A stretch of DNA of 64,000 nt from an uncultured virus (IMG/VR IMGVR_UViG_3300027659_000029) (Duplodnaviria; Heunggongvirae; Uroviricota; Caudoviricetes): the IMG/VR virus record IMGVR_UViG_3300027659_000029, one strand, 5' to 3'. The position numbers and the translations under genes were made by a program. The notes beneath the pieces are model-generated. The model had not been told where the DNA came from. It was given only the letters and a program-made list of their open reading frames with translations, and did not search any database. Shown in pieces: positions 5,893-30,800 of this stretch; within the stretch, counting starts at the first letter, position 1, and each line of letters begins with the position of its first letter.

Positions 5893-5902
5893 AAATATAA
5901 TT

Positions 5903-6403
5903 ATGCAGACAATATTAAAAATCCAAAAACAAGAAGAATTTGACCGAATTGTTTTCATTCATTACAAAAATGATGAGATAATTGGACTCAATTGGCATCA
6001 AGATTGCGAATTAGTAGATTACGCATTTACAAAACCTTGCAATGCATTAACCAATATATTCAACAGGTTGAAAAAAAGTATGCCTTTGCTCAACGATGAA
6101 GGAAGAGTAAACAAGGCAATTGATTTGTATTCAGATGCCTACATATTCCAAGATCAAGATTTGGTGACCATTCCAAATAAACAAACATCCTTAATTCAAA
6201 AAGCATTGAACTACTATGTCAAAATGGCTAAATTCAACACCGATAATAAAATAGACGAAAATGGTGAATTACATTTTGAACTATTCGATATGCAACAATT
6301 GAGCGCAATGATGAATTATGAGATCAGCATTTCCATTTATGAGGAAGATAAAAAATCATTTGCATCAAATCACGGAATTGACTTTCCAATTTACAATTAT
6401 TAA
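5903..6403 (+). CDS. Hypothetical protein
   Basis: 166-aa ORF. Confidence 0.8.
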   Translation: MQTILKIQKQEEFDRIVFIHYKNDEIIGLNWHQDCELVDYAFTKPCNALTNIFNRLKKSMPLLNDEGRVNKAIDLYSDAYIFQDQDLVTIPNKQTSLIQKALNYYVKMAKFNTDNKIDENGELHFELFDMQQLSAMMNYEISISIYEEDKKSFASNHGIDFPIYNY

Positions 6404-6411
6404 AATTACTT

Positions 6412-6699
6412 ATGGCAACCCAAACATACATATTTTACTCAAGTGATATTCATGGATCAACTTATGATAGCAAAGCAAAATTCCTTTTTAACGAAGGAAA
6501 CCACAAAAAAGTATTGGCATTTCTTGAAAACAATTTAGCTGATTATTTTGAAGGTAATCACACAAGACAATATGATTCTTTTAATCATATTTGCAATATG
6601 GTGAAAGATGGGATACCCATCCAAGATGCCATCAATACAAGTAATGATATATGTGGTTATTGCCGTCCTGTTGAATCAATCCAAAATATACAATATTAA
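6412..6699 (+). CDS. Hypothetical protein
   Basis: 95-aa ORF. Confidence 0.75.
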   Translation: MATQTYIFYSSDIHGSTYDSKAKFLFNEGNHKKVLAFLENNLADYFEGNHTRQYDSFNHICNMVKDGIPIQDAINTSNDICGYCRPVESIQNIQY

Positions 6700-6700
6700 T

Positions 6701-6877
6701 ATGACAAAAGAAGTAAAAATGAAAGAGAAGAGCATTTACGGAAATGTGTTAACATATCCTAATTGCGAAACTTCAGAAAAATTTGCACACTTAATTCAAA
6801 AAATGACATTCAGCGAAAGAGATATAACAATTATCAAGATGCTTGGTTACAAAGTTACAATTAAAAAATTATCATAA
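6701..6877 (+). CDS. Small hypothetical protein
   Basis: Likely start MTKEVKMKEKSIYGN just after the previous stop. Confidence 0.65.
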   Translation: MTKEVKMKEKSIYGNVLTYPNCETSEKFAHLIQKMTFSERDITIIKMLGYKVTIKKLS

Positions 6878-6902
6878 TGGAATTTAAAAGTGTGTTAGCA
6901 GA
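6835..6902 (+). repeat. 68-bp perfect direct repeat, copy 1
   Basis: caagatgcttggttac...aaaagtgtgttagcaga, identical to 7556..7623. Confidence 0.95.
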
Positions 6903-7555
6903 AGTTTGATACGAAGAACGAATAAAAACTTTTTTAAAAATGTGCGGTGGAAAATATAATTTCAAATATTTATATATAAAATAAAACTATTTATTAATAT
7001 GGAACAAGATAAAAAACTAAAAAACTTCATTAAAACTACATTAAGAGAGTTTTTGAATGAAAATGTTAATAATGGTAATAATGGTAAAGATGGTACTTTA
7101 TCATTTTGGAATGGTAAATGGAGAGTTAGTTATACAACAGAAAATGGTGATTTTAGAGGTGATTCAGGACTGGAACTACATCCAACACAAGTTGAAGATA
7201 TAAATATTTTCACTCATTATATAAAAAAAAGAGGTGGTGTTGATGTTATTTATAATGTAGTTGATGGATTTGCTAAATTAAATGATACAAATGCCACTCA
7301 TTATAAAATCGTAAAAGATGTAACTGCAAATGAATATGGTTGGAGACAAACATATTTTGTTATTGGTGAATATCCTAATGATAGAATTGTTATAATACCA
7401 AAAAATAGATTTAATGAATGGGAAAAAACTAATCTAAATAAAAAAATAGGTTTTAATAGATATGAAGAAATTGTATCTAAAACAGCAGTAATATAATTTT
7501 AAAAAAGTTTTCTCACTTAACTTAATTTGAAACACTAATGTAGTATTGTGTATAA
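6903..7555 (+). mobile_element. Inserted single-gene cassette between 68-bp direct repeats
   Basis: Interrupts the start of the MEFKSVLA gene; 15-bp inner inverted repeat aaaacttttttaaaa (6925-6939 / 7497-7511); ends GTTAGCAG... and ...GTGTATAAC. Confidence 0.75.
6999..7496 (+). CDS. Hypothetical protein carried by the inserted cassette (N-terminal IKTTLREFLNE motif)
   Basis: 165-aa ORF, only gene of the insert. Confidence 0.8.
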   Translation: MEQDKKLKNFIKTTLREFLNENVNNGNNGKDGTLSFWNGKWRVSYTTENGDFRGDSGLELHPTQVEDINIFTHYIKKRGGVDVIYNVVDGFAKLNDTNATHYKIVKDVTANEYGWRQTYFVIGEYPNDRIVIIPKNRFNEWEKTNLNKKIGFNRYEEIVSKTAVI

Positions 7556-7623
7556 CAAGATGCTTGGTTACAAAGTTACAATTAAAAAATTATCATAATG
7601 GAATTTAAAAGTGTGTTAGCAGA
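7556..7623 (+). repeat. 68-bp perfect direct repeat, copy 2
   Basis: Identical to 6835..6902; supplies the start of ORF 7598..7969. Confidence 0.95.
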
Positions 7624-7969
7624 TGAGGATATATCGTTATATTATATCTACTTAGGATTAGATTTGCCAAAAGGAACTGATGTAAATACATCTTGTTTGG
7701 CAACTATTGACTGGGTTGTAAGCATTGAGGCTAAAAAAGATAGAATTAAAAATATTTCAGCATCAATACTTAATGTTTCTTTACAAATAGAATATTGGTA
7801 TCTAATAGATGCGGATGACGAAAGTAAAGGTATAATTGAAGGAATAAAATATATTACATCTTTAGATGATTATAAAATTGATGACTCTGAATTTAAAATA
7901 TTAAATGAACAATTGTCTATTTGTGATTTAGATGTAGATTTCAAAACAAAAACATTTAAAATAACATAA
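7598..7969 (+). CDS. Hypothetical acidic protein
   Basis: 123-aa ORF starting in repeat copy 2. Confidence 0.8.
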   Translation: MEFKSVLADEDISLYYIYLGLDLPKGTDVNTSCLATIDWVVSIEAKKDRIKNISASILNVSLQIEYWYLIDADDESKGIIEGIKYITSLDDYKIDDSEFKILNEQLSICDLDVDFKTKTFKIT

Positions 7970-8100
7970 CATCATTATTTTTAAAAAACACATCATAACA
8001 AAGACGGATATCAATGAGCAAAAACTTAAATTAATTGATATGCATATAAATAAATATGGTCAAAATAAAATTGACAAACAAAATCAAAAAATAAAAAAAT

Positions 8101-8310
8101 ATGAGCAGAGATTCGCAAAGCAGTCTAACATTGGGACTAATGAAAACAATGAAAAGTGGAGATGTATTTATTTACGATGGATCACCTGAAAGCGCAACAT
8201 CCAAAGCATACAAACTTGGTGTTAAAATAACTACAGAAAAAGTTATAATTTTAAGTAATCTTAAAAGCGAAATAAAAGCAGAGCCTTACATAAAAATTAC
8301 AATTGTATAA
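8101..8310 (+). CDS. Small hypothetical protein
   Basis: 69-aa ORF, A-rich leader. Confidence 0.65.
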   Translation: MSRDSQSSLTLGLMKTMKSGDVFIYDGSPESATSKAYKLGVKITTEKVIILSNLKSEIKAEPYIKITIV

Positions 8311-8574
8311 CAATGTACAAACACTCAAATATCGTAAAAGAAGTGATACTTTTTTTATTAACATTGATTGCAATAATGTTATTATGCATATTATTTATGA
8401 ATTCATTTAGATAAAAATCAATTTAAATATTAATAAAATGGACAACAAATTACTAATGTCATCAAATGCATTTGAATTCCCCAACAAAAAAAAACCAGAC
8501 TACAAGATGTTGGTTCTTGTAACTATTATTTTTATAATCTTAACTATAATCTTAGAAAAACTATTCCTTTAACA

Positions 8575-8784
8575 ATGAGAAAAATCAAACGTAACACCCA
8601 ACTTAAAAATATGCCTTGCTACATTCAAAAGATGTTAAAAATTGCTCAAGTACTGGGCATTCATATTGACGTATTCCAAACTAATTCTCAAAATTGGATA
8701 TTCCATGTAAATGTAGATTTAGAAGTGTTGATACAAGGAGAAGATCATCTGATTGACACTTTTGAGAATTTAATTGATATGTAA
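8575..8784 (+). CDS. Small hypothetical protein
   Basis: 69-aa ORF. Confidence 0.65.
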   Translation: MRKIKRNTQLKNMPCYIQKMLKIAQVLGIHIDVFQTNSQNWIFHVNVDLEVLIQGEDHLIDTFENLIDM

Positions 8785-8817
8785 TCAAGCATAATTATTA
8801 CCACAAAAAAAAATACA

Positions 8818-9162
8818 ATGAACGCAAGAGAATCAATAATACATATGTGCCTACTTAAAATTTATGATATTTATAAAGACGGTAGCGACATTCCAACAAC
8901 TACTATATTTAGGCAACAAGCATTGCATACAAACTACGCCAGAATTCTAAAAAATGATGGCAGATTATTAACAACTAATGGACACACAAAATGGAATGGG
9001 TTAATGCCTTCTGAATTATACACAATTAAATTGATGTCTATTCATTCAAATTATAGTTCTGGGTATCAAAAAAAAATACAATCGGGTACGAAATCAGATT
9101 TAAAAGAACTGCATAGAAAAATAAATCTTATCTTAGAGCATTTAAATATAAAAATTTATTAA
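8818..9162 (+). CDS. Hypothetical protein
   Basis: 114-aa ORF. Confidence 0.7.
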   Translation: MNARESIIHMCLLKIYDIYKDGSDIPTTTIFRQQALHTNYARILKNDGRLLTTNGHTKWNGLMPSELYTIKLMSIHSNYSSGYQKKIQSGTKSDLKELHRKINLILEHLNIKIY

Positions 9163-9171
9163 ACATATAAG

Positions 9172-9501
9172 ATGTCAAAAAATTATAATTCATTCGATAG
9201 GATACAAATGTTTATTCAAATGCAACTTCCACAGCAGATAATAAAAAATAGGTATACACTACTTGGGGTTCATTACAATGGAGACGCTGATTTTTTAGAT
9301 GCTAACATAGGTAATTGCACCATACAACTTAAAGCTCTTAAAAATGATACGCATATTGAATTGATTAAATTTAATGAACGAAATGATTATATGTTGAATA
9401 CAAACTATAAAGATTATAAAAGGTTGTTGATACGTCAATGTAATGAACGTATTAGAATGCTGTTTGTAAACCAGATCAATCTTTCATTTAGCGAAAATTA
9501 A
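9172..9501 (+). CDS. Hypothetical protein
   Basis: 109-aa ORF, last of the + strand block. Confidence 0.7.
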   Translation: MSKNYNSFDRIQMFIQMQLPQQIIKNRYTLLGVHYNGDADFLDANIGNCTIQLKALKNDTHIELIKFNERNDYMLNTNYKDYKRLLIRQCNERIRMLFVNQINLSFSEN

Positions 9502-9517
9502 TTATAATTTACTATAC

Positions 9518-9554
9518 AAAAGCCCCACTATCACGATTGATGTGGGGCTTTTTT
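9518..9554. terminator. Bidirectional intrinsic terminator
   Basis: aaaagccccac...gtggggctttttt hairpin between convergent gene blocks. Confidence 0.85.
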
Positions 9555-9597
9555 ATAATGAAAACAACAATTAGAAAACAAAAATACATTTTTTTAA

Positions 9598-10143
9598 TTA
9601 TATAAAAAAATCTTCAGGGAGTTTTGAAGCAATTTCGCTGATTAGATGTGAGAATATTCTTGCTCTTTTGACCGCCACCTCCCAAATTGGCATTCCTTTT
9701 GCTTTCCCCCAGTTATTATCGTAATCAGAATGACATTGACTACACATAAGAAGATGGTTATGCTTGTTGGTGGCTACAGACGGGAACTTACTTTTTGGAA
9801 CGATATGGGCATGAGTACTTCTATTTACCCATACCTCTGTGGATTTTAACTGATACAGCACAGAAGTGCCACAATTTTCGCATATTGGTCTTGGGTTAAG
9901 TAATGCCTTTAGTGTTTGGAAATCAAACCATTTTTCAAGCAATTCACGTTTTTCTGTTTCTATTGCTTTATCCTCATCACTTTTTTTGGGGGATACTCTT
10001 GGTATTTGAATAGGTTTCATTTCTTCTACAACTTCTTCAATTGTATTCCATTTTTTACAAGCTCTGCATTGACCGCCCCATTGAACTGTGTGATTCTTAC
10101 AACTACTGCACTCAAAATACTTTTTTGCTTTTTTTTGAATCAT
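9598..10143 (-). CDS. RadA/Sms-type Zn ribbon fused to an HNH-like Zn-finger nuclease domain
   Basis: FECSSCKNHTVQWGGQCRACKKWNT (RadA-like) plus CENCG...HAHIVPKS...NHLLMCSQCH (HNH-like). Confidence 0.7.
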   Translation of the reverse strand: MIQKKAKKYFECSSCKNHTVQWGGQCRACKKWNTIEEVVEEMKPIQIPRVSPKKSDEDKAIETEKRELLEKWFDFQTLKALLNPRPICENCGTSVLYQLKSTEVWVNRSTHAHIVPKSKFPSVATNKHNHLLMCSQCHSDYDNNWGKAKGMPIWEVAVKRARIFSHLISEIASKLPEDFFI

Positions 10144-10330
10144 TGTTTTTAGATTTATAAACAACATAAATCAATACATTGTTTGGGTTAATTATTCCAC
10201 GTTCACCAACTTCTTGTAAATACAAATCTATTTTTGATTGTACATACTGATTTGCTTCTCTGCCTATTGGGATGTGGTGAAGTACCTTATTATTGATGGT
10301 AAATATTAATGTTGTTTTGGGTGGATACAT
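10112..10330 (-). CDS. Small hypothetical protein
   Basis: 72-aa ORF abutting neighbours. Confidence 0.55.
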   Translation of the reverse strand: MYPPKTTLIFTINNKVLHHIPIGREANQYVQSKIDLYLQEVGERGIINPNNVLIYVVYKSKNNDSKKSKKVF

Positions 10331-10555
10331 TTAAAATGGTATTTTTTCTTTTTTTATTAATTCTACGTTTTCATTTATTTTTTTCTGTGGGATAAATTCA
10401 GATGAGATCCACCATCCAATAACCCCATTTTTAATTGTTTTTTTTATAACTACTCCTCTTTTAATATTTATTACTTTTTTACATTTAGTCATTATATATT
10501 TTGGATGTTTTTTAAATACCCATTTATCTTCATAACTTATTGATATTATTATCAT
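10331..10555 (-). CDS. Small basic hypothetical protein
   Basis: Likely start MIIISISYEDKWVFK; ORF track start at 10597 overlaps the cassette end. Confidence 0.65.
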   Translation of the reverse strand: MIIISISYEDKWVFKKHPKYIMTKCKKVINIKRGVVIKKTIKNGVIGWWISSEFIPQKKINENVELIKKEKIPF

Positions 10556-10587
10556 TACCGAGATGTGTTTATAGATGTAGCCAATAG

Positions 10588-10812
10588 TTAGGCACAATTA
10601 AGAAGTTTACCTTCCAATCTACCTATAACTTCAACCCATTGGCTGCTTTCAATATTCATCGCTTCGTCAGTTTGTCCTATGTCTGCAAAGTTTTTACATA
10701 GTTTGGCTAATTCTATTGCAGCCAATGTGTTTTCCCTCTTGGATAGTTTTCCAGTATAAGGGTTGTTGTCAGATGAACGCATCATCAAGTTTACTAATTT
10801 TAGTGTTGTCAT
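10588..10812 (-). CDS. Hypothetical protein in cassette A
   Basis: 74-aa ORF bounded by inverted ends gttaggcacaattaa / ttaactgtgcctaac; its stop codon lies in the core site. Confidence 0.75.
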   Translation of the reverse strand: MTTLKLVNLMMRSSDNNPYTGKLSKRENTLAAIELAKLCKNFADIGQTDEAMNIESSQWVEVIGRLEGKLLNCA

Positions 10813-10829
10813 AATTTATAATTAACTGT

Positions 10830-10925
10830 GCCTAACAACGTATATAAGAGATACGCCAATAAGCGGTTTTACATTTATTTAAGTTTGTCGGTGGCGTACC
10901 TCTCATATACGCAGCCGTTATAGGC
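10830..10925 (+). mobile_element. attC-like recombination site 1
   Basis: GCCTAAC-aa-[cgtatataagagatacgcca]...[tggcgtacctctcatatacg]-cagcc-GTTATAGGC; 20-bp arms with 2 mismatches. Confidence 0.75.
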
Positions 10926-10937
10926 AAATAAATTTTA

Positions 10938-11141
10938 CTACCTTTTGAAGTAACTCTTATTATCCCCTTCGTAATTGTCATATCCCATTGCCATTGCTAT
11001 GCACAAAAATCTGCTTCTGCCATTGTAGCTTTGCATATAATCTATTGCTTCATACAATACCTCGTTCTTTTCTTTTAAGCTAAGTGCAGCATATTTTTTG
11101 TTTATTTCCTCGCTTGTGTAATATTTTGTTTTCGTTTCCAT
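10938..11141 (-). CDS. Hypothetical protein in cassette B
   Basis: 67-aa ORF bounded by 22-bp inverted ends (20/22 match). Confidence 0.75.
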   Translation of the reverse strand: METKTKYYTSEEINKKYAALSLKEKNEVLYEAIDYMQSYNGRSRFLCIAMAMGYDNYEGDNKSYFKR

Positions 11142-11159
11142 AATCCGTAAAATTTATCA

Positions 11160-11293
11160 GCCTATAACATACGCTATACAAAAGTGGGGCTGTGTGCCAA
11201 ATCTGTACAGTTGTGCATCTAATTTGCTTTTGTGCGGTAAGCAAGGGTTGTGCATCTTAATCCCCACCTTCGTATAGCGTCAGCCGTTAGCAG
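11160..11293 (+). mobile_element. attC-like recombination site 2
   Basis: GCCTATAAC-at-[acgctatacaaaagtgggg]...[ccccaccttcgtatagcgt]-cagcc-GTTAGCAG; 19-bp arms with 2 mismatches. Confidence 0.75.
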
Positions 11294-11299
11294 AAAGCA

Positions 11300-11863
11300 C
11301 TACCTGCGTATTCCAAAATCAGATTTTCGTAATTTACACATACGACCATCTGTCTTATGATGAAATACAATACCCTCAATGTCTACTTTCTCTAAGTAAT
11401 CTTTTAGGTTTTCAAATGTCATTGGGTTAATCAATCCTTGCAAAACTTTTGCTCCGTGCCTTACCAAATGATGTCCTTCTATTTTTTCGGGATTGCCTTG
11501 TACTTTTTCGCCTATTAATTCATAAGTGCCATCTTCAACTTTGCCAAGTTTAGCAAGTGAATTGAAGCCTTCAAAAAAGTATTTATCCTCGTTTTTATCG
11601 TGGCTACATTTTAACCAATGTGGATGATGTCCTGTTATTAAATCTGCTTCTTGACAAGGTATTGCACCATCAGGAACTTGTCTGCCTTTCTTCACATCGT
11701 ATCTTTTGTAAAGTTCGCCATTAATAATAGCGGTTGATGTACCATCATATTTTCTTGTTGGTATTCCATCTGTAAAAACCCATTTATTTTCAGGGTTTAC
11801 TTCATTGATTACCCTGCCCAAATCTTGCGAGTCTTTCTTAAATAATGTGCTGATTTTTTTCAT
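11300..11863 (-). CDS. RNA-ligase-like nucleotidyltransferase (DUF5565-like)
   Basis: TRKYDGTS (KxDG motif I), GTYELIGEKVQGNPE, EGIVF (motif IV), terminal K(L)R. Confidence 0.7.
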   Translation of the reverse strand: MKKISTLFKKDSQDLGRVINEVNPENKWVFTDGIPTRKYDGTSTAIINGELYKRYDVKKGRQVPDGAIPCQEADLITGHHPHWLKCSHDKNEDKYFFEGFNSLAKLGKVEDGTYELIGEKVQGNPEKIEGHHLVRHGAKVLQGLINPMTFENLKDYLEKVDIEGIVFHHKTDGRMCKLRKSDFGIRR

Positions 11864-11911
11864 TTGTATTTAATTTATCATTTATATTCATATCAATATT
11901 TTAATGAGATT

Positions 11912-12730
11912 TTAACAATAAGGGCTGATAATACCTATAAGTTCTTTTATTGATATTGGGCATGAGCTATTGACAATTACAAATTGGTCAAAAACTGCAT
12001 TTGCAATTTTAGTAGCCATCATTTCTTTTGGATCACGCCCTGACATCTTTTCTACTTTTTCTGCGGTAACCTTTCCTACTTTATTTTCAGATATTGTTTT
12101 TTTGATAGCTTCTTTTCGTTCCGTTGGAGAGGTGATTGTTTTTTGCAATTTCACCACCGTTGAGACTGCAATATTCCCTTTTTCAACTTCGTCTTTCACC
12201 TCTTTGGATTCATTGGCATATGATAGCATTTGTGACACATACGAATACGTTTTACCTACTTTACTTGCTACTTCTGTTGGGGTGTATCCCAAGTTTACTA
12301 ATCGTCTGAAAAGTTCAGCCATTTCGTGTGGAAGAAGTGGTTTTGAATCTTGGGTGGTGAACATCTGAATTATCCTTTGTTCTTCACTTGTTTTCTTACC
12401 ATTCACAATAGCTTTGAATACAACATCATTTCCTTGCTCTTTAAGTAGAAATAATGCTTGTACTCTACGATGACCTTCAACGAGTAAGAAACGCCCATCT
12501 TCAAGCACGTCTACTCTACCTGCTACCGTTTGACCATTTTCAATAATTGATTGCGCTAATCCCTCAATATCACCGTAATCTGTTCGGACGTTAAACCCTT
12601 CACGAATTACAAGTTTATTGAGTTGAATTTTTACAATTTCTTCACCTCTTTGTGAATTTTTACGGATCGTTTCGACATTACCTAACATGTCTTGATTTAA
12701 TTCTTTGATGTCTAGTGTTAATTGACTCAT
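11912..12730 (-). CDS. ParB/Spo0J-family protein with HTH
   Basis: FNVR.DYGDIEGLAQSIIENG, LVEGHRR arginine patch, HTH GYTPTEVASKVGKTYSYVSQML. Confidence 0.85.
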   Translation of the reverse strand: MSQLTLDIKELNQDMLGNVETIRKNSQRGEEIVKIQLNKLVIREGFNVRTDYGDIEGLAQSIIENGQTVAGRVDVLEDGRFLLVEGHRRVQALFLLKEQGNDVVFKAIVNGKKTSEEQRIIQMFTTQDSKPLLPHEMAELFRRLVNLGYTPTEVASKVGKTYSYVSQMLSYANESKEVKDEVEKGNIAVSTVVKLQKTITSPTERKEAIKKTISENKVGKVTAEKVEKMSGRDPKEMMATKIANAVFDQFVIVNSSCPISIKELIGIISPYC

Positions 12731-12889: not shown

Positions 12890-13891
12890 CTATTTTACCT
12901 TGTTTGAAAATCTGCCGTTATAAAAACTAACTTTACCATTTTTCCCAAACTCAATTTCATACTTCCCTGTTTGGTGCATTGATGTGGCTAATTGTGATTT
13001 AAGTTCAATTTCTTCTTCCTCAATTTTCTTCTTTTTATCTCTCAGTTTCAAAAGTTTTTTTGCTTTTTCAAGCATTAATTCATCACCTTTTATTGAGATT
13101 GTTTGTTGTTTTGTCTTGGCAATATCTGTTAGGTAATCAAAATATGCTTCTGTATTGTCTGGAGGTGGTTCAAGTTGAAGAATTTCGTATTCTAATTCTG
13201 ATACTAATTTATTGTTATAATTATTTTTTGCGTTTTCAATTTGGTTAATATATACCCTTGCTTGTTCTACGTTATTCCAAAATTTATTTGCTGACTTTAC
13301 AATAACTGATTCCATTGAAAGTGAATCCTTATATGACATTGGCAATACCTCCATTTCTACATTATCAATAAAATATGCGATTTCAGAATATTGGTATTCG
13401 CTTATTAAATTTTGTTGAGCAAGTTGACAAACTTCTACTGGATTCATTTTGTCTGTAAACTGCTTATAGCTTAAAGATGTTTTGTTTTTTAATTCAAGAT
13501 TACACCACCCTTCATACCTATCGTCTTTGAATCTTCTATCAAGTGATACAAATAGATTTGGATACTTGTCATTGTACATATATCCTTTTACATCTTCGCA
13601 TCTTCTTACTTTTATTCTGTTGGTGACATTGTTATTGAATTTTATCTTATCTCTATCCCAATACTCCCACAATTCCGCTATTAATGGTTCACTCATATGA
13701 CCCAAATTCATTCTTAAACTCATTGGCCTTTGCTTCAACCTTCCAATTTTAAGATGGAATAACTCAAGGCTTGATTGATATTTGTTCACCCCTAATATAG
13801 TGCCGATTTCAGAAGCTCCTATACCTCTATGCCTGTATGATAACCATTCTTCTCTTGACCACCCTTCTGTACTCACAAAATTAACTGCCAT
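12890..13891 (-). CDS. YqaJ-like viral recombinase exonuclease (lambda-exonuclease fold)
   Basis: EEWLSYRHRGIGASEIGTILGVNKYQS, GHMSE, SLDR, LELK; likely start MAVNF. Confidence 0.9.
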   Translation of the reverse strand: MAVNFVSTEGWSREEWLSYRHRGIGASEIGTILGVNKYQSSLELFHLKIGRLKQRPMSLRMNLGHMSEPLIAELWEYWDRDKIKFNNNVTNRIKVRRCEDVKGYMYNDKYPNLFVSLDRRFKDDRYEGWCNLELKNKTSLSYKQFTDKMNPVEVCQLAQQNLISEYQYSEIAYFIDNVEMEVLPMSYKDSLSMESVIVKSANKFWNNVEQARVYINQIENAKNNYNNKLVSELEYEILQLEPPPDNTEAYFDYLTDIAKTKQQTISIKGDELMLEKAKKLLKLRDKKKKIEEEEIELKSQLATSMHQTGKYEIEFGKNGKVSFYNGRFSNKVK

Positions 13892-13893
13892 AT

Positions 13894-14008
13894 TTAAAAA
13901 AGCCCCCAAATAACAAAGGCTATCCGACGGTAAGATAAACTCACGGTGGCAATGTTAAATGGGGGAATGTTTTTGGGTGTTTTCATATCGGATAGCATGG
14001 CAAAAGTA
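13894..14008 (-). promoter_or_regulatory. Promoter plus structured leader (attenuator-like) upstream of the YqaJ gene
   Basis: TACTTTTG box (14008-14001); GCTATCCGA/TCGGATAGC pair overlapping a CCCCCA..TAACA/TGTTA..TGGGGG-polyT stem; 30-codon leader ORF 13986-13894. Confidence 0.55.
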
Positions 14009-22505: not shown

Positions 22506-24854
22506 TTATATAAGTGCTTCTTTTTCTTTTTTAGCCATTTCTAATTGAGCCAAATGGTCTGCTTGGCTTTTTTTGTTTTCTGATGAATTATCTTGTACTG
22601 CCTTTTTACCTTCTGTTTTTAATTGTTCTTGCAACGCCAATAATTGAGTTTGTGTTTGTGTTTGTTTTTGTTGCATTTGTTCATTAAATTGTGCTTGTTG
22701 TTGTTGTGATTGCTGTTGAGCTTGTTGCTGTTGTTGCATTAGTGATTGTTGGTTTTCAATAGCTATTCGTTGCTGTCTTTTTATTGATGCCGTAACGAAT
22801 AAATTAGCCAATTTGAAATTATCAATTCCTTGAATAATAACTAATGTCCCAATTGGTATTTTTTGTTGCAGTTCAAGTTGCATTACATAATTCATAAATG
22901 CAATTCTATCTTGTTCTGTTGGTACGCTTTCTACATCTAATATACATCTTTGCTCTGGCATATCTCTATATACTTCCAACCAATTAATTCCTTTTGTTCC
23001 TAATATAGCATACATTTCTTTTGCTCTATCTGATGTTGGTTTAAGGTTTTTATCAAATTCAGATATAACTTGTTGATTATAATATAACATTCTTTCGCCA
23101 AATTCAGTATTTGCAAACTCATACGCCTCTTCAATATCCATTGTAGCAAATTGTGAACTTGCGGTTGCTCCTTGAATGCTTTTATTTGTTGTTCTTGGTT
23201 TTGGTTCTTGTGCTAATCTATTAGGATTTATACCCAATGACATTAAGCACATATTGTATATTGTCATTAATTGTTGAACCAACCCTACACAATCGTTAAG
23301 TATTCTATTTTCCATTATTGATGTAGGATTATCTAATCTTTCCTCATCATTTTCACCCTTTCTTTTTTTGGCAATATAACTACCGCTTTGTTTAACTCTT
23401 CGTATTATTTTAGCTTGTATATTTTGGGCTGCATTTTGGTCAATATCTATATCATTATTTTGCATCTCTGATATAATTTCATCAGCTAATGCCCTTAGTG
23501 GTTCTTCCGCAAATATTACGCCTTGTGGTATAAATGAAGCAAATGTGTTTAAATATTGATTATAAATTTTATTCATTCTTGAGAAATCAACATTCATAAT
23601 ATCATAAAAACTCATTCTCGTACCGTCTCTTCTTACAATTAATGAAGTTTTAGCATCTACCAAATTTGTTCCATTTCTATACATATCTTGCAAATTTCCT
23701 AGATCAAGTATGTATTTCTCATCAAGACTTTGCGATGATAATGGAAGGTAATAAAATTTCTTAATTACATTGTAATAATTACCTGTATTTTCATCTTTTT
23801 CGTGCTTTTTAATCTCCATATATCCCAAACGAATATTGGTATTCAAAAATCCAAATGTTGGTTGTATTACATTATCATCAAAATTAGGCCAGTCGCTATT
23901 GCCCCATGTAAGTCTATTTTTTTCATATACCATTTTATTCCTTTCATCATCCATTTTGCCCCCTACCATTTTCATATAATTGACCCAAGTAGTTACAAAT
24001 TCATAACTCCAATAGTCTAAATCACCACCATTTTTTTGTTTAAAATTTGATGTGTAAATATTTACTGGGTCAATATATGTAACCTCTGGCAATCCATTCA
24101 TTGCGGATGTATAAAACCTATAACATAATGCATTGACGTGCATATAGTCTGATATAATTCTTTCCGATACTATGTCATCAAATTCAACATCATCACGATA
24201 ATGCGAAATCATTTCTTCGTGTGCAATTTCGACTCCATCTTTTAACATTCCACTTTCTGATAACAAGGCATAGTCCCAATCATCTTGTGATTCAGCTTTT
24301 ATTTGCGCTAAAAGATTAGGCGTTTCCTCTTCGCCATTTTCACTAGGTATAAGTAGTTTATCTAAATTTGCATCATAACTTATAGGTGGGTGATTTGTCA
24401 ATGCAAGGATATCATTAATGGTATCTACCATATTCCTTTTATTGAGTATCCTTAATTTTTCTTTCGCTTTTTTATCTACTGAAATTTTATCAGTACCCCT
24501 TACGGATAAACTTGAAATACCACTTTTGATTTGTTTTTTAATTATATTGACCAAAGATTGAACTGCTGGACACGGTTTCCAATCTGTTCTCATAAATTCT
24601 GCCGTGCCTCCTTCGCCAGTTTCTCTATTTTTAGGATCAAAATAATTTTTTAATTCAGCTAATGATTCCGCATCAAGTATCCCTTTATCAATGTCTCTAT
24701 ACTTTTTAATTTTAACGCCATCAATAAATAGTGTTCTAGTAATATATATTCTCCTTAAAAATTCTAACGCCCACTTTTCATCGACTTTCATGTCAATGTC
24801 TTGAACTATACTTTGAACTTGTGGTAATACTTTATTTTTGGTCTGTTTTGCCAT
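22506..24854 (-). CDS. Portal protein
   Basis: 782 aa; DWKPCPAVQSLVNII, YIDPVN, LGINPNR and Q-rich C-terminal tail typical of Bacteroidota podophage/crAss-like portals. Confidence 0.75.
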   Translation of the reverse strand: MAKQTKNKVLPQVQSIVQDIDMKVDEKWALEFLRRIYITRTLFIDGVKIKKYRDIDKGILDAESLAELKNYFDPKNRETGEGGTAEFMRTDWKPCPAVQSLVNIIKKQIKSGISSLSVRGTDKISVDKKAKEKLRILNKRNMVDTINDILALTNHPPISYDANLDKLLIPSENGEEETPNLLAQIKAESQDDWDYALLSESGMLKDGVEIAHEEMISHYRDDVEFDDIVSERIISDYMHVNALCYRFYTSAMNGLPEVTYIDPVNIYTSNFKQKNGGDLDYWSYEFVTTWVNYMKMVGGKMDDERNKMVYEKNRLTWGNSDWPNFDDNVIQPTFGFLNTNIRLGYMEIKKHEKDENTGNYYNVIKKFYYLPLSSQSLDEKYILDLGNLQDMYRNGTNLVDAKTSLIVRRDGTRMSFYDIMNVDFSRMNKIYNQYLNTFASFIPQGVIFAEEPLRALADEIISEMQNNDIDIDQNAAQNIQAKIIRRVKQSGSYIAKKRKGENDEERLDNPTSIMENRILNDCVGLVQQLMTIYNMCLMSLGINPNRLAQEPKPRTTNKSIQGATASSQFATMDIEEAYEFANTEFGERMLYYNQQVISEFDKNLKPTSDRAKEMYAILGTKGINWLEVYRDMPEQRCILDVESVPTEQDRIAFMNYVMQLELQQKIPIGTLVIIQGIDNFKLANLFVTASIKRQQRIAIENQQSLMQQQQQAQQQSQQQQAQFNEQMQQKQTQTQTQLLALQEQLKTEGKKAVQDNSSENKKSQADHLAQLEMAKKEKEALI

Positions 24855-24881: not shown

Positions 24882-27800
24882 TTATTTTTTTTGTTTATCA
24901 GGTACTAACCATCTTAACCCAAAATTATTCATAGCCCTATTACCCCACGTTGATCTATCCACTTCTCTGTTACCGTCTGTCATTTGTTGTACATCACTTA
25001 TTGACCCTAAATATGGTAATTGAGGGTTAACAAATGGAAGCCCCATATTGTTATTTAATAAAGGCACACTCATGCTTAACCCTGCTCTTATATCTGATAA
25101 CAATGCTAACCCTGCGGCTGTTGTACTTACTTTTGATTTAAATTCTTCATCAGACATATTATCACCTTCCTCTTTGCCTTTCTCCATTCCCATTACAAAT
25201 CTACGTTTATAAACTTCAATTGAATTACCTGCCACCAATGCAGGATAAAAAGCAGGGCTATGCTCTACCATCCTTTCAGCTACTTTGCCTGCGTACCCTT
25301 CTTTTGCCAAATCTACACCAAATAATTCAAGTTCACCTTGTTTCATTGCACCTTTCTTTCTATTTCGGTCATCTTCATTTTGGAATCCACCAAATTTCAT
25401 ATTACCCATTGCCGCTAATGCAAATATTACTAAACCTAATCCACCTTTACGATAACATCTAAAAATTAAATCAATATCTTCTTGTGGCATTTCGGATATA
25501 TGTTGCTTGATTGCATCTTTAAGTGGGATACCTTGCTCAATCCCTTTTCTTGCCCCTTTTATGTTTTCTATTAAATGTCTGCCCCCACCTGTGAATGCTC
25601 CAAGCATATATTCTACAATTGCCTCTCTTGCAATGTTGACAGGTGTTCTTACAATTGGATATTTTGTTTTAAATGCTGCTGAAGCAATTTTGCCTAATTC
25701 TGTATTCTTTTTACTTTTGTCAACGCTATAACTTGCGGGTTCGCTATACCCAAGAATTCTTGTTATCTCATTCATTTTTGAGGTTACATAGTTATCTTCT
25801 TGATATTTACCTCTTAAAAAGTTGACATAACTTTCATTTATGCTACTTAATATTACATCTGGGTTTGAAATATCATCCCCACGTCTTGCTTTCTGTTCAA
25901 GTCTTGCGGTATACGCTGCTGCAAATTCAGCTCTAGCGGAGAAACTTTTAAGGAATCCATGAAGTCCACCCATTAAACTAATTCCCAACTCCCATTTTTC
26001 AAATGTTGTTCTGTCTTTCCAAGATACTTGTACGTCATTTCCAAGCAATGCATCTAATTGATTTGCTCCTTTAATCATTGCATCCATACCGTCTTTAAAT
26101 GATTTCCCACCTATCCAATTATATAAGTTATTTGATTGGTGGTCAAGCAATGCATTTTGGGCAATTGTTTTTGAAAAATTAAAGTTATTTTGCAATTTTT
26201 TGTCATTAGGGGATGCATCTAATGCGTCTTTTGCATCTTTCAGTCTTAATAAAGATACATCAAGTTTTACTTGTGTCTTTTCCCACATTTTTCTCATCCC
26301 TTCTTCGCCTATATTAAAATAATGAGCCTTATACCTATGAGCCTCTTGCCTCCAAGAGAATGGAGCTTCGCTACCTGCATAAAGACTTAAAGTAGGATTT
26401 AAAATATGTGCTACATTACCAAATGTAGCATTGGTTATTGTATTTAAAGGTTGTTTTGTTAAGCCTGAGAACCCAACTGCCGCTGCTGTAGTTAGATGAC
26501 CTATTAACCCTTGAATATAAATAGTACCTGCCATTGATCCTGCTTTCTCATACCATTTTTTATTTTGAGATTCAGCCAATTGTTGCTCCCTTCTATATTT
26601 AGCTTCAATTTTTTTAGCTTCAATTTCTAATTTTACAACTTCTGAATCAGTCTTTTTTCTTACAGGTTGTGGGCTATCTGTAAACTCTTCCGCATCAATT
26701 TTTCTTTGTGCTTCTTTCCCTCTATTTACAAGATTTTTTTTGTGACGAATTAGCAATATATCTTGTTCTGCGTTTTTCATATCACGTTCTAACTGCCAAA
26801 TGTTATTTGATGAAGATTTTAATATATCTTCAAATTGAGTTACATCTAATGATGATACTCTTAATTTTTTCAATGATTTGTCAAGTACATCTTCAATTCT
26901 TTGAGATGTTTCAATATCAACTTTTGATAATTCTATATTTGTCTTGAAGTTTTGTAAATCTTTTATAGAAGAAGATGATAATGAATTATCTTTTAATTTT
27001 TCATCAACAAGATTTATTAATTTGTCAATTCTTGAATTATGTTCTTCGGCAATTCTTTTTTTCACATCTCTCTCATCTTTTGGAGACCTATCAATTCTAA
27101 TATTTCTTTTATTTAATTCTGTTTTAAATTCATTTCTCAATAAGTCTTCTTCTGTTGTGGCTTGTCTTTTTTCTTGTTCAGTTCTTGCGTCTACTTGATT
27201 TTTTTTAGCCTTTTCTATTTTTGTTTCAAGTTTTGCTATATTTCTTAATTCGTTCCTTGCATCATTTATTTCTTTATTTATATCTTTTTGTGTTGACAAT
27301 TTGTAATCACCTGATTTCAAATAAGCATCTCTTATTTGTTGATCTGTCATTCCTTTGTATATTGATTGCAAATCTTCTTTCACATTTTCAAATACATCTT
27401 TACCACGAACTCCATTATCAATATGGTGATTAATAAGTTTATTTACTAACCCTTTGGCTACCGCTTCAATACTTAAATTATTATCTGAATATGATTTTAT
27501 TTTATTTAGTATGTCATTTTTATCAAGTCCACTTATAATATGATCTGTAATTTCTTTTTCTTTTAATGTACTAAATCTTGCATCTTTATACAATACTTCA
27601 CTTATTGCTTGTGCAAGTGTACTTCCTTTTTCTACTAATTGTGCAATTGCTTCAACGGCAAGGTTTCTTAACCCAAAAGTCAAATCGGTGGCAAGTGTTG
27701 AATTGTCAATTTTTAATTCCCTAATTCTATCCGCAATATCTTTACCTGATTTGCTAAGTGTTTTTTCTCTTCCTGTTTTTTTAGATTCAGTTTGTTTAAT

Positions 27801-30800
27801 ATCCTTTGCCCTTCTTTTTACTTCTTCATCTACTGCTGTATCAAAATCCTCTTGACTCCACTTTGGCAATTCTTTTGTTGCTGATTCAATTAATTTTTTA
27901 TGTTCACTCGCTATTTTAAGTATTGCATTTTCTTGCGCTTCAGTTAGTGGCTTACCTCCTTGATTACGAATAATATTCATTCTTCTAATAACAAGATTGT
28001 TATCAGCATCCATTTTAGCTACCATTTGTCGTATATAGAATGATCGCCCAGCTACTTTACCTGTTTCAGATAATACTTTATCGACATTAAGTAATTCAGC
28101 TTGTAATACTTTAGCTTGTGCTAATGCTAACTCTCTATTTGCATCATCAAGTGATGACATTCTATCATTAAGTTTCCCAATTTCTTCATTGATATGTGTA
28201 CGATAATATGACATCACCGCTAAATCTTCATCTGTTGGATTAAATGTTGACTTACCTTTTTCATCAATTTCATTTTCAATCTTTTCTCTCCAATCACTAA
28301 TTCTGTTTTTTGCTACGTCTGTAAGTGATTGACCTTTTTTAGCCGCATTAGCAAGGCTGTTTATTGCACCTTTTACACTTTCATCCCATGTAACAACATT
28401 CCCAGTACTATTATATTTTTTTGCAAGTTCTTCCGCAACTGTGATATCATTTTTATTGATATGGGTATACTCGCTATCCGCTTTTTCTTGTGGCGTTTCA
28501 CTTATTTCGTCTGTGGCATCCACCTTTGGCACTTCCGCAATTTTTAAAGCACTATCAATTTCTTCTTGTGAATTACCTTTTCTTTTAAGTATGGACTCAA
28601 TCTCTTTGTCATTTGCTCCTTCACCCCTTAGTTCATCAATGAATGATGTAAGTTCTTTTTTAGGTACTGCGGTGAATAATGGCAAACCACTTTCAACTTG
28701 TGATTTAAGTTCTGGTGTGATGTCTATGGAGTGTTGGGTGGAAGTTACTTCTTTTATTTCATTGTCTTTTGTTGTTTTTGCCCTTCGGGCTTCAATATAT
28801 GATGTAAATACCCCTAATTTATTTCCATTACCGTCAATAACAGTATAAATACGGTCAGACTTGAACCTATTTGGTTGCGTCTCTTCAATTTTTGATGGCT
28901 TACTTAAACCAAGTTTCTCGCCACTATTTATTTTAACCGTTTTCGGCTCTTGCTTAAACAAACTCTTAGCTACATTACCTACTATACCTAAACTTCCTTC
29001 TGTTGGACTTCCATAAAATCCCTTCATGCCTTTGCCGCCTAATTTTAACCCATCACCACTAAATATACTTTTACCTTCATTTATAACTTTGTCCGCTATT
29101 TCTTTCCCAACATAATCAGTAAGTTCCTTTTCATTTCTCATTAACCCTTTATGTTCTTCCCCATACAAATCCGTTGTGGTAACATCAAATGTATCGTCCT
29201 CTAAATGATTGATTTCAATTCTTTTTACTTGCTTACTCAAATCATACCTTTCATTCTGCTGCTCTCCTGTACTCCAAGCAATCTTATCAGCCCCTTGTTT
29301 TACTGCTTCTTTAAGGGCTACTTTTAAGCCTAATTTAGTCCATGCGTTTGTGTCGGTTACGAAGGGGGCAGATGAAATAATTGATTCTTTTGATTTACTA
29401 ATTGTCCAATTTGCAGTATTTTTAAGTCTTTCTTGTCTTATTATATACTCTTTAGCTTCTTTTTCTGAACCAAAATACCCATCAATAACACCTTTACTAT
29501 CTAATACGATAAACTCCTTAACATCAAACCCTTCTTTCTTTCCTTTTTGCCCCCAATCGGTTTGTACTTCTTCCAAAAACAATACCTTGCTGCCATCTGC
29601 TGCTGTACGGGTGTTCATGCGAAGATGAACAAGTATGTTGGGTTCGTCAAAGTGAGAAGATTTGAATTTTGCGGGGACTTCGGCTATCCCACTATTCCTA
29701 ATTTCGACTGTGCTTGGTAATTTACTCCTTATATCATCAAGTTTCCAACCAAGTCTATAATGTTCATCCTTTTGTGATTCAGTTGGCATATCTAAACCAA
29801 GTTCAGCCTCTATTTCTTCCCTACGTCTTACTATGGCATTATGTTCATCAATCAATGGTTGCTCCTTATTAGGCAAAGTAACCAATACCTCTTTGTAGTT
29901 TTCTTTTTCCCCTTCTAATTGGTATTGAGAGTATTTGGTTTGTGAAAAATACCCTTCTTCCTCATATAATTCTTTTGCCTCTTTTAATGCTTCTTCTTTT
30001 GTATTTGCAAATATATTTGTTGGGTTGCCATCGCCATCAAGAACTATCCAATCACCTTTTTTCAAATTTTCATTTCCAGCAATTATTTCTTTGTCAAAAT
30101 TCTTACCATCATATTGCTTGACTACTGCTTCAAAACCCTCTCTTTTTACCAATTCAACAACTTGTATTCTATTATCCTTTAAGTATTGTTGTATATCTGT
30201 TTTAGATACAGAACCTTCTTGTTGTGCCAACCAATTAGATAACCCAGTCCACTTAGCCTCATCGCCCTTTCCAAATTTTTCAATCCATTGCTTTGCAGGT
30301 AATTTATCTAATTTTGTTTCTGAAATAGTTTTTTCAAGTGGGGAGTAAAACCCATTTACAACATCAGGTGCGGTTGGCTTTACTTTAACTTTCTCACCAT
30401 TGAACATAATTGTTTTTTCACCTGCTTTTTGTTCTTGTTTTTTCAATTTTAGGTATTCTCCTTTTGCAAGAGAGTTTGACGAACGATTAAGTAATTCTTC
30501 AATTGTAAGTGATTGCAAATCGGTGGTGTCTTTTAGCCCAAGTTTTTCAGCAAACCATTTTTTAACTGCTTGTATAAAATTCTTGACTTTACCGCCACTT
30601 GCCTCTTCAAATTTCTTTGCATTGATAGGTGCTTGTAGATATGCCCACATTTCATTTCTTACCCTTTCACGATATTCGTTTGGTGATTCACCTTTTTCCT
30701 TACGATAAACATCACTACTTAAATCAATTCTTTGTTCGCCAATCCTTACTACTTTTTGTCCACTTTCTATTTGGTCAATGGCTTCCTTTAAAATACTATC

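Follow-up and report, generated by a model that had tools for sequence, protein, structure and literature searches.

A truncated single-gene cassette of an integron-like family between 68-bp direct repeats in the genome of an uncultured phage

The IMG/VR record IMGVR_UViG_3300027659_000029 belongs to an uncultured virus of the Caudoviricetes, a freshwater phage. We have analyzed a stretch of 64,000 nt from this record, which we call the window; coordinates refer to it unless another source is named. Between two identical 68-bp copies of phage sequence it contains a foreign insert of 653 bp (6903..7555, plus strand), which is a truncated single-gene cassette. The insert belongs to a widespread family of small gene units. 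In other uncultured phage contigs these units form dense arrays, which are an integron-like variant. Its entry was probably an illegitimate capture of a cassette broken off from the arrays of large phages, most simply by a double template switch; the donors would be large phages of the same waters. Illegitimate acquisition between phages is as such a known type of event; the present case is unusually readable. The joints in phage mosaics are hardly ever young enough to reveal how a gene got in, while here both joints, the duplicated target and the donor family are all legible.

A repeat finder detects a direct repeat of 71 nt with one mismatch (6832-6902 and 7553-7623). Its perfect core is 68 bp long (6835-6902 and 7556-7623), with a spacing of 721 nt. 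Such a perfect repeat is far beyond chance within 64 kb. It is made up of the final 43 nt of one gene, gene A, plus the first 8 codons and 2 nt of the next one, gene B, whose ATG overlaps the stop codon of gene A (TAATG). Since the repeat spans the end of one gene and the start of the other, gene A is whole at the left copy (6835..6902) and gene B is whole at the right copy (7556..7623), which also provides its native 42 nt upstream. The left copy leaves a 10-codon stub of gene B (MEFKSVLAEV, then a stop codon). A single open reading frame (ORF) of 165 aa is found between the copies (6999..7496, plus strand). A previous inspection of the letters of this DNA, the sequence-only reading, had described 653 bp between identical copies with both neighbours intact, and also a 15-bp inverted repeat around the ORF. 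Repeat finder and ORFs agree with the first description. The inverted repeat is perfect (6925-6939 and 7497-7511), and its arms lie 22 and 44 nt inside the ends of the insert. No transposase is encoded, as the same reading had stated: the ORF has no match in Pfam, and a single PHROG, of unknown function, is matched weakly (E 0.008).

Parts of the stretch are contained in 12 public runs. We have compared four of them (X1-X4); the others (X5-X12) hold small shares. In X1, possibly the source of the record, the unitig depth is 25 on the gene A side, 23.6 for the left junction and insert, 26 for the insert and right junction, and 21.5 on the gene B side. The repeat forms a separate unitig of 68 nt with a depth of 48.7, and the breaks between the de Bruijn unitigs are exactly those expected from a 68-nt repeat. 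X2, from another study, has a single contig covering 6000-7043, in which gene A, the left repeat and the first part of the insert are joined. In X3, from a third study (2024), 6835-7138 and 7351-7585 are present with 100% identity. There is no contig to the right of 7596 in X3 and only pieces in X4, gaps which carry no weight. In all, the insert and its left junction are present in runs of three studies, the right junction in two of these. Insert and flank depths are 24-26 and 21.5-25 in X1, about 3.4-3.75 and 4.3 in X2, and about 8.4-9 and 7-8 in X3. The 1:2:1 depth shows that the duplication is real. We find no contig that leads from gene A to gene B in the absence of the insert. Such an allele would not be visible in a 31-mer graph, and only depth is informative here. 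The depths leave little room for an empty allele, and the insert now looks fixed. The sequence-only reading considered the insertion recent. Some caution is needed: the allele is present in runs dated 2017 and 2024, so it is not brand new. The empty site that this reading proposed to look for was not found among these contigs. Its check of the junctions succeeded for each of them separately, although the unitigs do not span both copies.

The last 20 nt of the 3' block of the insert are found exactly in 34 IMG/VR stretches. These correspond to 26 distinct loci, in contigs of 3 to 349 kb, and the family counts given below refer to them. The left arm of the inverted repeat is found 340-700 nt upstream in 19 of the 26 loci, and the right arm also in 19. 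A AATATTTATATATAA box is present in 18. Seventeen loci encode one of two conserved N-terminal helices (MEQDKK...FLNEN or MSKEMR...FLNEN); the cargo behind the helix, of 60-190 aa, is unrelated. At the DNA level, about 150 nt are conserved, reaching from the upstream region to codon 20 of the ORF, start codon included; the ORFs then diverge completely. About 60 nt past the stop codon are conserved too, and they end in GTATTGTGTATAAC. According to blastn, the leader is about 89-91% identical over about 170 nt to L003, L043, L044 and L047, while the 60-nt 3' block is 84-94% identical to family members. A protein-guided scan of IMG/VR gave two contigs which match only the first 20-22 residues of the ORF. 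When the window is compared by blastn with L001-L052, the only matches are 6895-7562 and one hairpin (11161-11289). The motifs of the leader and of the 3' block have no second copy anywhere in the window. Because they are unique in the window and recurrent in IMG/VR loci, the insert is a member of this family and foreign to the window phage.

The leader (6903..6998, plus strand) begins inside the conserved block of the family and is promoter-like, with TAATTTCA (6957-6964) next to AATATTTATATATAA (6965-6979). The first 22 codons of the ORF (6999-7064) encode the conserved N-terminal helix, MEQDKKLKNFIKTTLREFLNEN. Both features picked out by the sequence-only reading, an upstream AATATTTATATA element (from 6965) and an IKTTLREFLNE motif, are indeed present. 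The 3' block (7497..7556, plus strand) starts with the right arm of the inverted repeat. It continues with a promoter-like box, AACTTAATTTGAAACAC (7519-7535), which points at gene B, and ends in an R'' half-site, GTATTGTGTATAAC (7543-7556), with no hairpin after it. The 17-mer AACTTAATTTGAAACAC recurs in other loci, by eye shortly upstream of start codons; its TTAATTTG core presumably resembles the TAnnTTTG promoter box of Bacteroidota. Leader and 3' box may act as promoters, and the insert may now drive gene B through its outward box. A search for sigma-70 promoters is uninformative in such AT-rich DNA (23 sites, 15 expected), and Rfam gives only sub-threshold chance rows near 9.5 kb when applied to 6000-12000.

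In the donor contigs, single-gene units form dense arrays, split by long imperfect hairpins with a common syntax: TAAC, 3-6 nt, stem, loop, stem, 0-4 nt, GTTA. A script scan of the loci gave 127 calls of such hairpins, 103 of them distinct. All are on the gene strand, with a spacing of 300-1000 nt; for example, L001 has 9 hairpins in 6.8 kb. The 10 nt which follow GTTA pair with the 10 nt which precede the 3' TAAC of the same cassette: in 54 distinct cassettes (L001-L047) the mean is 6.96 of 10 positions and the mode is 9. Against the hairpin which holds the start the mean is only 4.41, and against random partners 3.69 (Wilcoxon p 8e-7). The pairing includes one constant G-T position, and one unit in L029 shows a matching change on both paired sides. 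The donor cassettes follow integron logic: crossover takes place between G and TT (G/TT), and the circular form restores the core of the unit itself. This paired core is about 14 nt long and cassette-specific. The core of classical integrons, with 7 nt, is shorter. The sequence-only reading had suggested an origin among cassettes with attC-like sites, and this is borne out: the family cassettes are bounded by TAAC...GTTA hairpins and the insert ends in R''.

Two donor records contain a Xer-like tyrosine recombinase of 268-269 aa, on the same strand as the array and just downstream of it. The arrays in question have 7-9 cassettes (L051:289-5763 and L052:3121-7656, from records G001 and G004). 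The two recombinases are 62% identical to each other. Their scores with the integron integrase model TIGR02249 are 151 and 153 bits, below its cut-off of 265 and matched in two stretches, and they are best described as Xer-like. Donor arrays with an adjacent recombinase, and this integron-like variant as a whole, are so far found only in uncultured phage contigs. A major capsid gene of the T4 type (Gp23) is present in two of five donor records. The link with T4-like phages, which the sequence-only reading had suggested, is thus supported for some donors. The window phage shows no Gp23-type capsid gene among the scanned ORFs. The portal protein of the window is found in none of the five donor records, an empty answer which carries no weight. 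In genome contigs the 3' 20-mer has four matches, in contigs of 2.6-5.8 kb from metagenome-assembled genomes of four unrelated phyla, and no host can be read from them.

Two peculiarities of the family should be mentioned. In L002 (4001-4240) the leader ORF is frameshifted by an extra T in a run of T after codon 18, with the cargo read on in the following frame. Sequencing error, decay and slippage are all conceivable causes. On the other hand, in L073, L093, L100, L101, L108 and others the AACTTAATTTGAAACAC 17-mer box and the ATG are found inside the hairpin loop. In these loop-start cassettes (L073, L100 and so on, detected by eye among 38 distinct loci) the ORF exits through the 3' arm and the GTTA core.

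The window has a small cassette array of its own on the minus strand (10588-11300). It contains an RNA-ligase gene, hairpin 2, a 67-aa ORF, hairpin 1 and a 74-aa ORF with no hairpin after it. Hairpin 1 (10833..10920, minus strand; fold z -3.4) consists of TAAC, a spacer, a stem of about 22 and GTTA. Hairpin 2 (11165..11289, minus strand; fold z -2.7) directly follows the RNA-ligase gene and shares 79% identity over 130 nt (11161-11289) with L007:1517-1645, a hairpin which follows a family cassette. The similarity begins exactly at TAAC and the flanking genes differ, so that the hairpin body acts as an independent module. In each of the two small cassettes the start is complementary to the inverse core of that same cassette, at 8 and 9 of 10 positions; the hairpin-less one, which starts with GTTA followed by GGCACAGTTA, pairs at 9 of 10 with its own core flank. 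The stop codon of the 74-aa ORF is the TAA of ...GTGCCTAAC, near 10593, and unrelated sequence follows: this is a hairpin-less end. The hairpins at 10.8-11.3 kb belong to the same class as the donor hairpins, which agrees with the possible link between the insert and the array at 10.6-11.3 kb raised by the sequence-only reading. The 10 nt at the left junction which it had noticed, GTTAGCAGAA, do occur in the window only at 6894-6903 and 11286-11295, when 0.12 occurrences are expected.

The window copy of the cassette is truncated at both ends, as comparison with its relatives indicates. In 17 of 19 aligned relatives the conserved block extends about 27 nt further to the left, up to a GTTA core (for example GTTATACACAGTAC in L007), while the similarity in the window begins only at AGAAGTTTG. 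The alignment places the left junction (6902/6903) inside the cassette unit, with the first 27 nt or so absent, including the cognate 5' end which would pair with its own inverse core. The junction lies 8 nt 3' of the G/TT position at 6894/6895. Microhomology at this point amounts to 3 nt (AGA) with most donors and to 6 nt (TTAGCA) with a leader of the L044 type, which is also found as a loose end in run X1.

The right junction coincides with the hairpin base. TATAAC (7551-7556) is the end of the cassette sequence, and its final base is the last one before the hairpin body. After TATAAC the best stem has 8 Watson-Crick pairs, which is the control level (mean 7.8), while 16 of the 26 relatives have 12-22. 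Folding of 7492-7640 (z 0.61) shows no hairpin at this junction, and the whole hairpin body is missing. The window is not alone in this respect. Eight of the 26 relatives also end at TATAAC without a hairpin. In a less biased set, found by the upstream 17-mer and read by eye, three of four hairpin-less ends are at TATAA(C/T) and one comes earlier. Both joints of the insert are illegitimate, yet the right one is not random, since eight of the 26 relatives and the array of the window share this type of hairpin-less end. The inverse-core-like sequence that the sequence-only reading saw there, GTGTATAAC, ends at 7556, and the right end is the R'' of an attC-like TAAC...GTTA site.

The left junction also has a striking neighbour. 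The last 9 nt of the repeat form an R'-type core, GTTAGCAGA (6894..6902, plus strand, and again at 7615-7623 in the second copy), and the junction is at its 3' edge, not at G/TT. This core is identical to the complement of the R'' flank (TCTGCTAAC) of hairpin 2 of the window (11165-11289). Cores of the GTTAGC type are found in 13 of the 103 distinct hairpins, and GTTAGCAG itself in two, so that this type of R' core, which the sequence-only reading had proposed, is real though rare. In the first codons of gene B there is probably a remnant of a cassette core, or a sequence which looks like one. The target is unstructured (z 0.32 and 1.41). We have also considered whether it might be a degenerate attC, with TATAAC at 6825-6830 and GTTAGC at 6894-6899 spaced as in such a site, but nothing pairs between them, and both 4-mers are common in the composition of the window.

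What the sequence-only reading proposed as a mechanism was the insertion of a cassette at a non-canonical GTT site, possibly by the same system as the array of the window. This is not supported. For a whole cassette, about 27 nt and the hairpin are missing, and the left junction is 8 nt away from G/TT. In addition, the target is unfolded, 68 bp are duplicated, and no tyrosine recombinase is seen in the window, which shows only 64 kb of the genome, either among its 25 ORFs of at least 150 aa (Pfam) or by tblastn with the donor recombinases (best E 1.7). Insertion of cassettes by tyrosine recombinases involves whole cassettes and single-strand exchange, without duplication of the target.

Illegitimate capture is the reading we prefer, and we consider it somewhat better than an even bet. 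In a mixed infection, a growing strand would leave the window genome at 6902 and continue on a donor cassette, with the left end set inside the leader at a microhomology of 3-6 nt (AGA, or TTAGCA if the donor was of the L044 type). It would copy the leader, the gene and the 3' block of the donor and then meet the folded hairpin, whose base would fix the right end. The strand would return to the window genome 68 nt behind its departure point, which would duplicate 68 bp. Selection would keep a product in which both the end of gene A and the start of gene B, with its 42 nt upstream, survive. The insert brings a promoter-like leader, an ORF whose first 22 codons or so are part of that leader, an outward promoter-like box and an R'' half-site, and the two repeats would make it excisable as a circle of 721 bp. 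We infer the template switches, the role of the hairpin at the right end and selection from the arrangement of the sequence. As to selection, the window encodes a YqaJ/RecE-like recombination exonuclease (12890-13909, minus strand). An enzyme of this type would promote removal of the insert by recombination between the 68-bp repeats, and the persistence of the insert therefore hints at selection. In short, a gene would have left an integron-like array and entered an unrelated phage without cassette machinery, leaving the neighbouring genes intact.

Several points weigh against this proposal. The recurrent and exact end at TAAC could come equally from a replication stall or from a site-specific cut at R'', and the right end is explained just as well if the inverse core was cut by a recombinase, or by a structure-specific nuclease with subsequent joining. 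The microhomology of 3-6 nt is too short to be significant alone. No IMG/VR donor has the exact sequence of the left junction: a scan with a 17-mer gave 14 matches, all in unrelated coding sequence. The exact 68-mer is unmatched in IMG/VR, and neither an empty-site allele nor a relative of the window phage was found in IMG/VR or in public contigs, so the ancestral state is deduced from the repeat itself. Unitigs cannot link across both repeat copies, and therefore the order gene A, repeat, insert, repeat, gene B relies on the assembly of the window and on the 1:2:1 depth. Finally, the 9-nt R'-type core abuts the left junction, with a probability by chance of about 3e-4 (a rough estimate). The presence of GTTAGCAGA at this place hints that a recombinase or its binding site took part.

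This last coincidence is the main reason for keeping an alternative which we otherwise consider unlikely: entry assisted by a recombinase, with a cut at R'' (TATAA/C), some action at or near GTTAGCAGA in the target, and the rest filled by repair. The right junction is within 1 nt of the R'' core, and the same end is found in eight of the 26 relatives and at the end of the array of the window. The left junction abuts the 9-nt core, and Xer-like recombinases are found beside donor arrays. In addition, Qi et al. 2023 (PMC9892861) report that IntI1 can recombine phage attC sites, their top strands less often, and according to the accessible text of a preprint (bioRxiv 10.1101/2022.09.11.507474) cassettes can insert outside att sites. 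On the other hand, the left junction is 8 nt away from G/TT, about 27 nt and the hairpin body are missing, the target is unstructured and the window has no detected recombinase. Known insertion uses single-strand exchange and whole cassettes, and the word "duplication" does not appear in the accessible text of that preprint.

A Campbell-type origin is still less probable, and we think it quite doubtful. In this case, a small circle with the gene and one 68-bp copy would be integrated by a single homologous crossover. Flanking direct repeats are the signature of such a crossover, and the YqaJ/RecE-like exonuclease of the window phage could be involved. T4-type phages make and package mini-circles of promoter cassettes (Arbiol et al. 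2010, PMC2839356). Nevertheless, the circle itself would need the same two illegitimate joins in advance, which adds a step. The insert has the same depth as its flanks, with no sign of free circles in the runs compared, and the window has no second copy of the cassette motifs for recombination.

An assembly artefact or an episome is very improbable. The true genome would have gene A, one repeat and gene B, and the assembler would have threaded in a separate molecule with the insert and one repeat; a unitig graph with k=31 is the same in both cases. However, insert and flank depths agree in the runs of all three studies, the repeat has a double depth in X1, both junction sequences are present as contigs, and an episome of 721 bp with 68 bp of phage sequence, kept at the exact copy number of the genome in three places, is unlikely. 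Other possibilities may be dismissed briefly. A transposon or insertion sequence (IS) does not agree with the lack of a transposase, with an inverted repeat which is internal and conserved in the family, or with a duplication of 68 bp, since IS target duplications are short and of fixed length; retro-insertion of a transcript is contradicted by the promoter region within the insert and by an end which comes before the hairpin, not after; against a tandem duplication, nothing but the 68 bp is double; and homologous shuffling of the PeSL type, known from T4-type phages, does not fit motifs of the leader and 3' block found only once in the window.

The hairpin-less ends suggest a more general idea, which we put forward only tentatively and hold to be rather less probable than its negation. 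Cassettes may spread by two routes: site-specific exchange and a recurrent half-site reaction, caused by a cut or a fork stall at TAAC. If the second route is true, genes without hairpin would reach unrelated co-infecting phages which lack the recombinase. They would be immobile by the cassette route, yet they would arrive with a promoter and an N-terminal tag. The insert in the window would be a freshly preserved case, and the ends of eight of the 26 relatives and of the array of the window would be older examples. If the exact TAAC end is a reaction product, cassette leakage between phage lineages becomes directly testable.

The cargo which follows the helix of the ORF consists of two small beta modules, at about residues 30-96 and 101-164. 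In other sequences these modules sit behind other N-terminal helices ending in L/I-N-E, or they are fused to other domains. In INPHARED, with about 50,000 sequenced phage records, neither the DNA of 5900-8400 nor the protein of the ORF has a match. The AlphaFold model obtained from the single sequence is poor, with a predicted local distance difference test (pLDDT) of 39; an alignment of 12 sequences raises it to 75.6. With this second model, Foldseek gives nothing at E <= 0.001 in PDB or BFVD. The best Z with VIA-align is 5.6, and all its rows are under the caution level of the tool: they are SH3/KOW-like for 101-165 and OB/cold-shock-like for 25-96. ESM Atlas has no usable match for the ORF. 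We claim no fold or function for the cargo, whose models have no significant structural match. The same cargo is found in L040, a metagenome contig of 1019 nt, at 93% DNA identity from codon 29 to 11 nt before TATAAC. It has a different N-terminus, a different genomic context and a right breakpoint inside the 3' block. L040 is a second and independent capture, with breakpoints other than those of the window.

The genes next to the insert are small. Gene A (6701..6877, plus strand) has 58 aa from the ATG at 6701, with a longer frame from 6608, and is complete. Gene B (7598..7969, plus strand) has 123 aa and is complete too. Pfam and PHROGs give no family for the four neighbours of the insert ORF, which include both genes, and gene B has no relatives in IMG/VR. 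Elsewhere in the window, a single open frame of 6371 aa covers 24882-43997 on the minus strand, and a portal-like gene (PHROG 6547) is found at 22506-24854. There are almost no other family matches among the large genes. The window phage looks like a member of a poorly charted lineage. A strong G+C-rich stem-loop with flanking runs of A and T (9530-9575; fold z -6.5) is placed where plus-strand and minus-strand gene blocks converge, and looks like a two-way terminator.

The most obvious comparison is with integrons. Clusters of attC sites (CALINs) have been described in virulent phages by Qi et al. 2023 (PMC9892861). The donors studied here are similar to integron cassettes in their single-ORF units, TAAC...GTTA hairpins, self-complementary ends and arrays and, next to some of the arrays, in a tyrosine recombinase, and the window itself has two hairpins of this kind. 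Nevertheless, the donor recombinases score below the integrase cut-off, are Xer-like and lie downstream of the array in the same orientation, and the donor cassettes differ in their specific core of about 14 nt and in having a promoter-like leader and a start codon of their own. The insert departs further: it has only an inverse-core half-site, with no hairpin, a truncated 5' end and a duplication of 68 bp.

Cassettes may also land outside canonical att sites, as the sequence-only reading had proposed for the insert, by the attC x attG reaction of Loot et al. (bioRxiv 10.1101/2022.09.11.507474). Complete cassettes, attC included, take part in this reaction, in which the bottom strand of a double-stranded site is cleaved once, and "duplication" has 0 occurrences in the accessible text of the preprint. 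The insert, in contrast, is truncated at both ends, with 68 bp duplicated.

PeSL cassettes and mini-circles of T4-type phages (Arbiol et al. 2010, PMC2839356) have some features in common with our case. They are small, conserved promoter-bearing blocks which flank ORFans in plastic regions of large phages, with circles proposed as the transfer vehicle, and the insert could likewise loop out as a circle. PeSL exchange, however, is homologous, between many copies in one genome, while the window has no second copy and the donors use hairpin sites. PeSL cassettes of T4-type phages are reportedly also treated by Comeau et al. in 2014.

The internal proteins of T4 are said to share a capsid-targeting N-terminus followed by unrelated cargo (reportedly in Mullaney and Black, 1996, and Repoila et al., 1994). 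In a similar way, the family studied here has a conserved promoter-like region, start codon and N-terminal helix fused to unrelated cargo, and the L-N-E at the end of the helix is presumably similar to L/I-x-E, the motif at which the T4 prohead protease cleaves. The likeness is one of sequence, and the window phage differs in the lack of a Gp23-type capsid gene noted above.

The closest parallel to the proposed entry is template switching at microhomologies, as in the models of fork stalling and template switching (FoSTeS) and microhomology-mediated break-induced replication (MMBIR), together with the illegitimate-recombination model of phage mosaicism. Foreign insertion, short microhomology at the junction and a duplication beside the departure point are common to these models and to the insert. 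They come mainly from cellular genomes; here, one of the breakpoints coincides with a structured recombination site.

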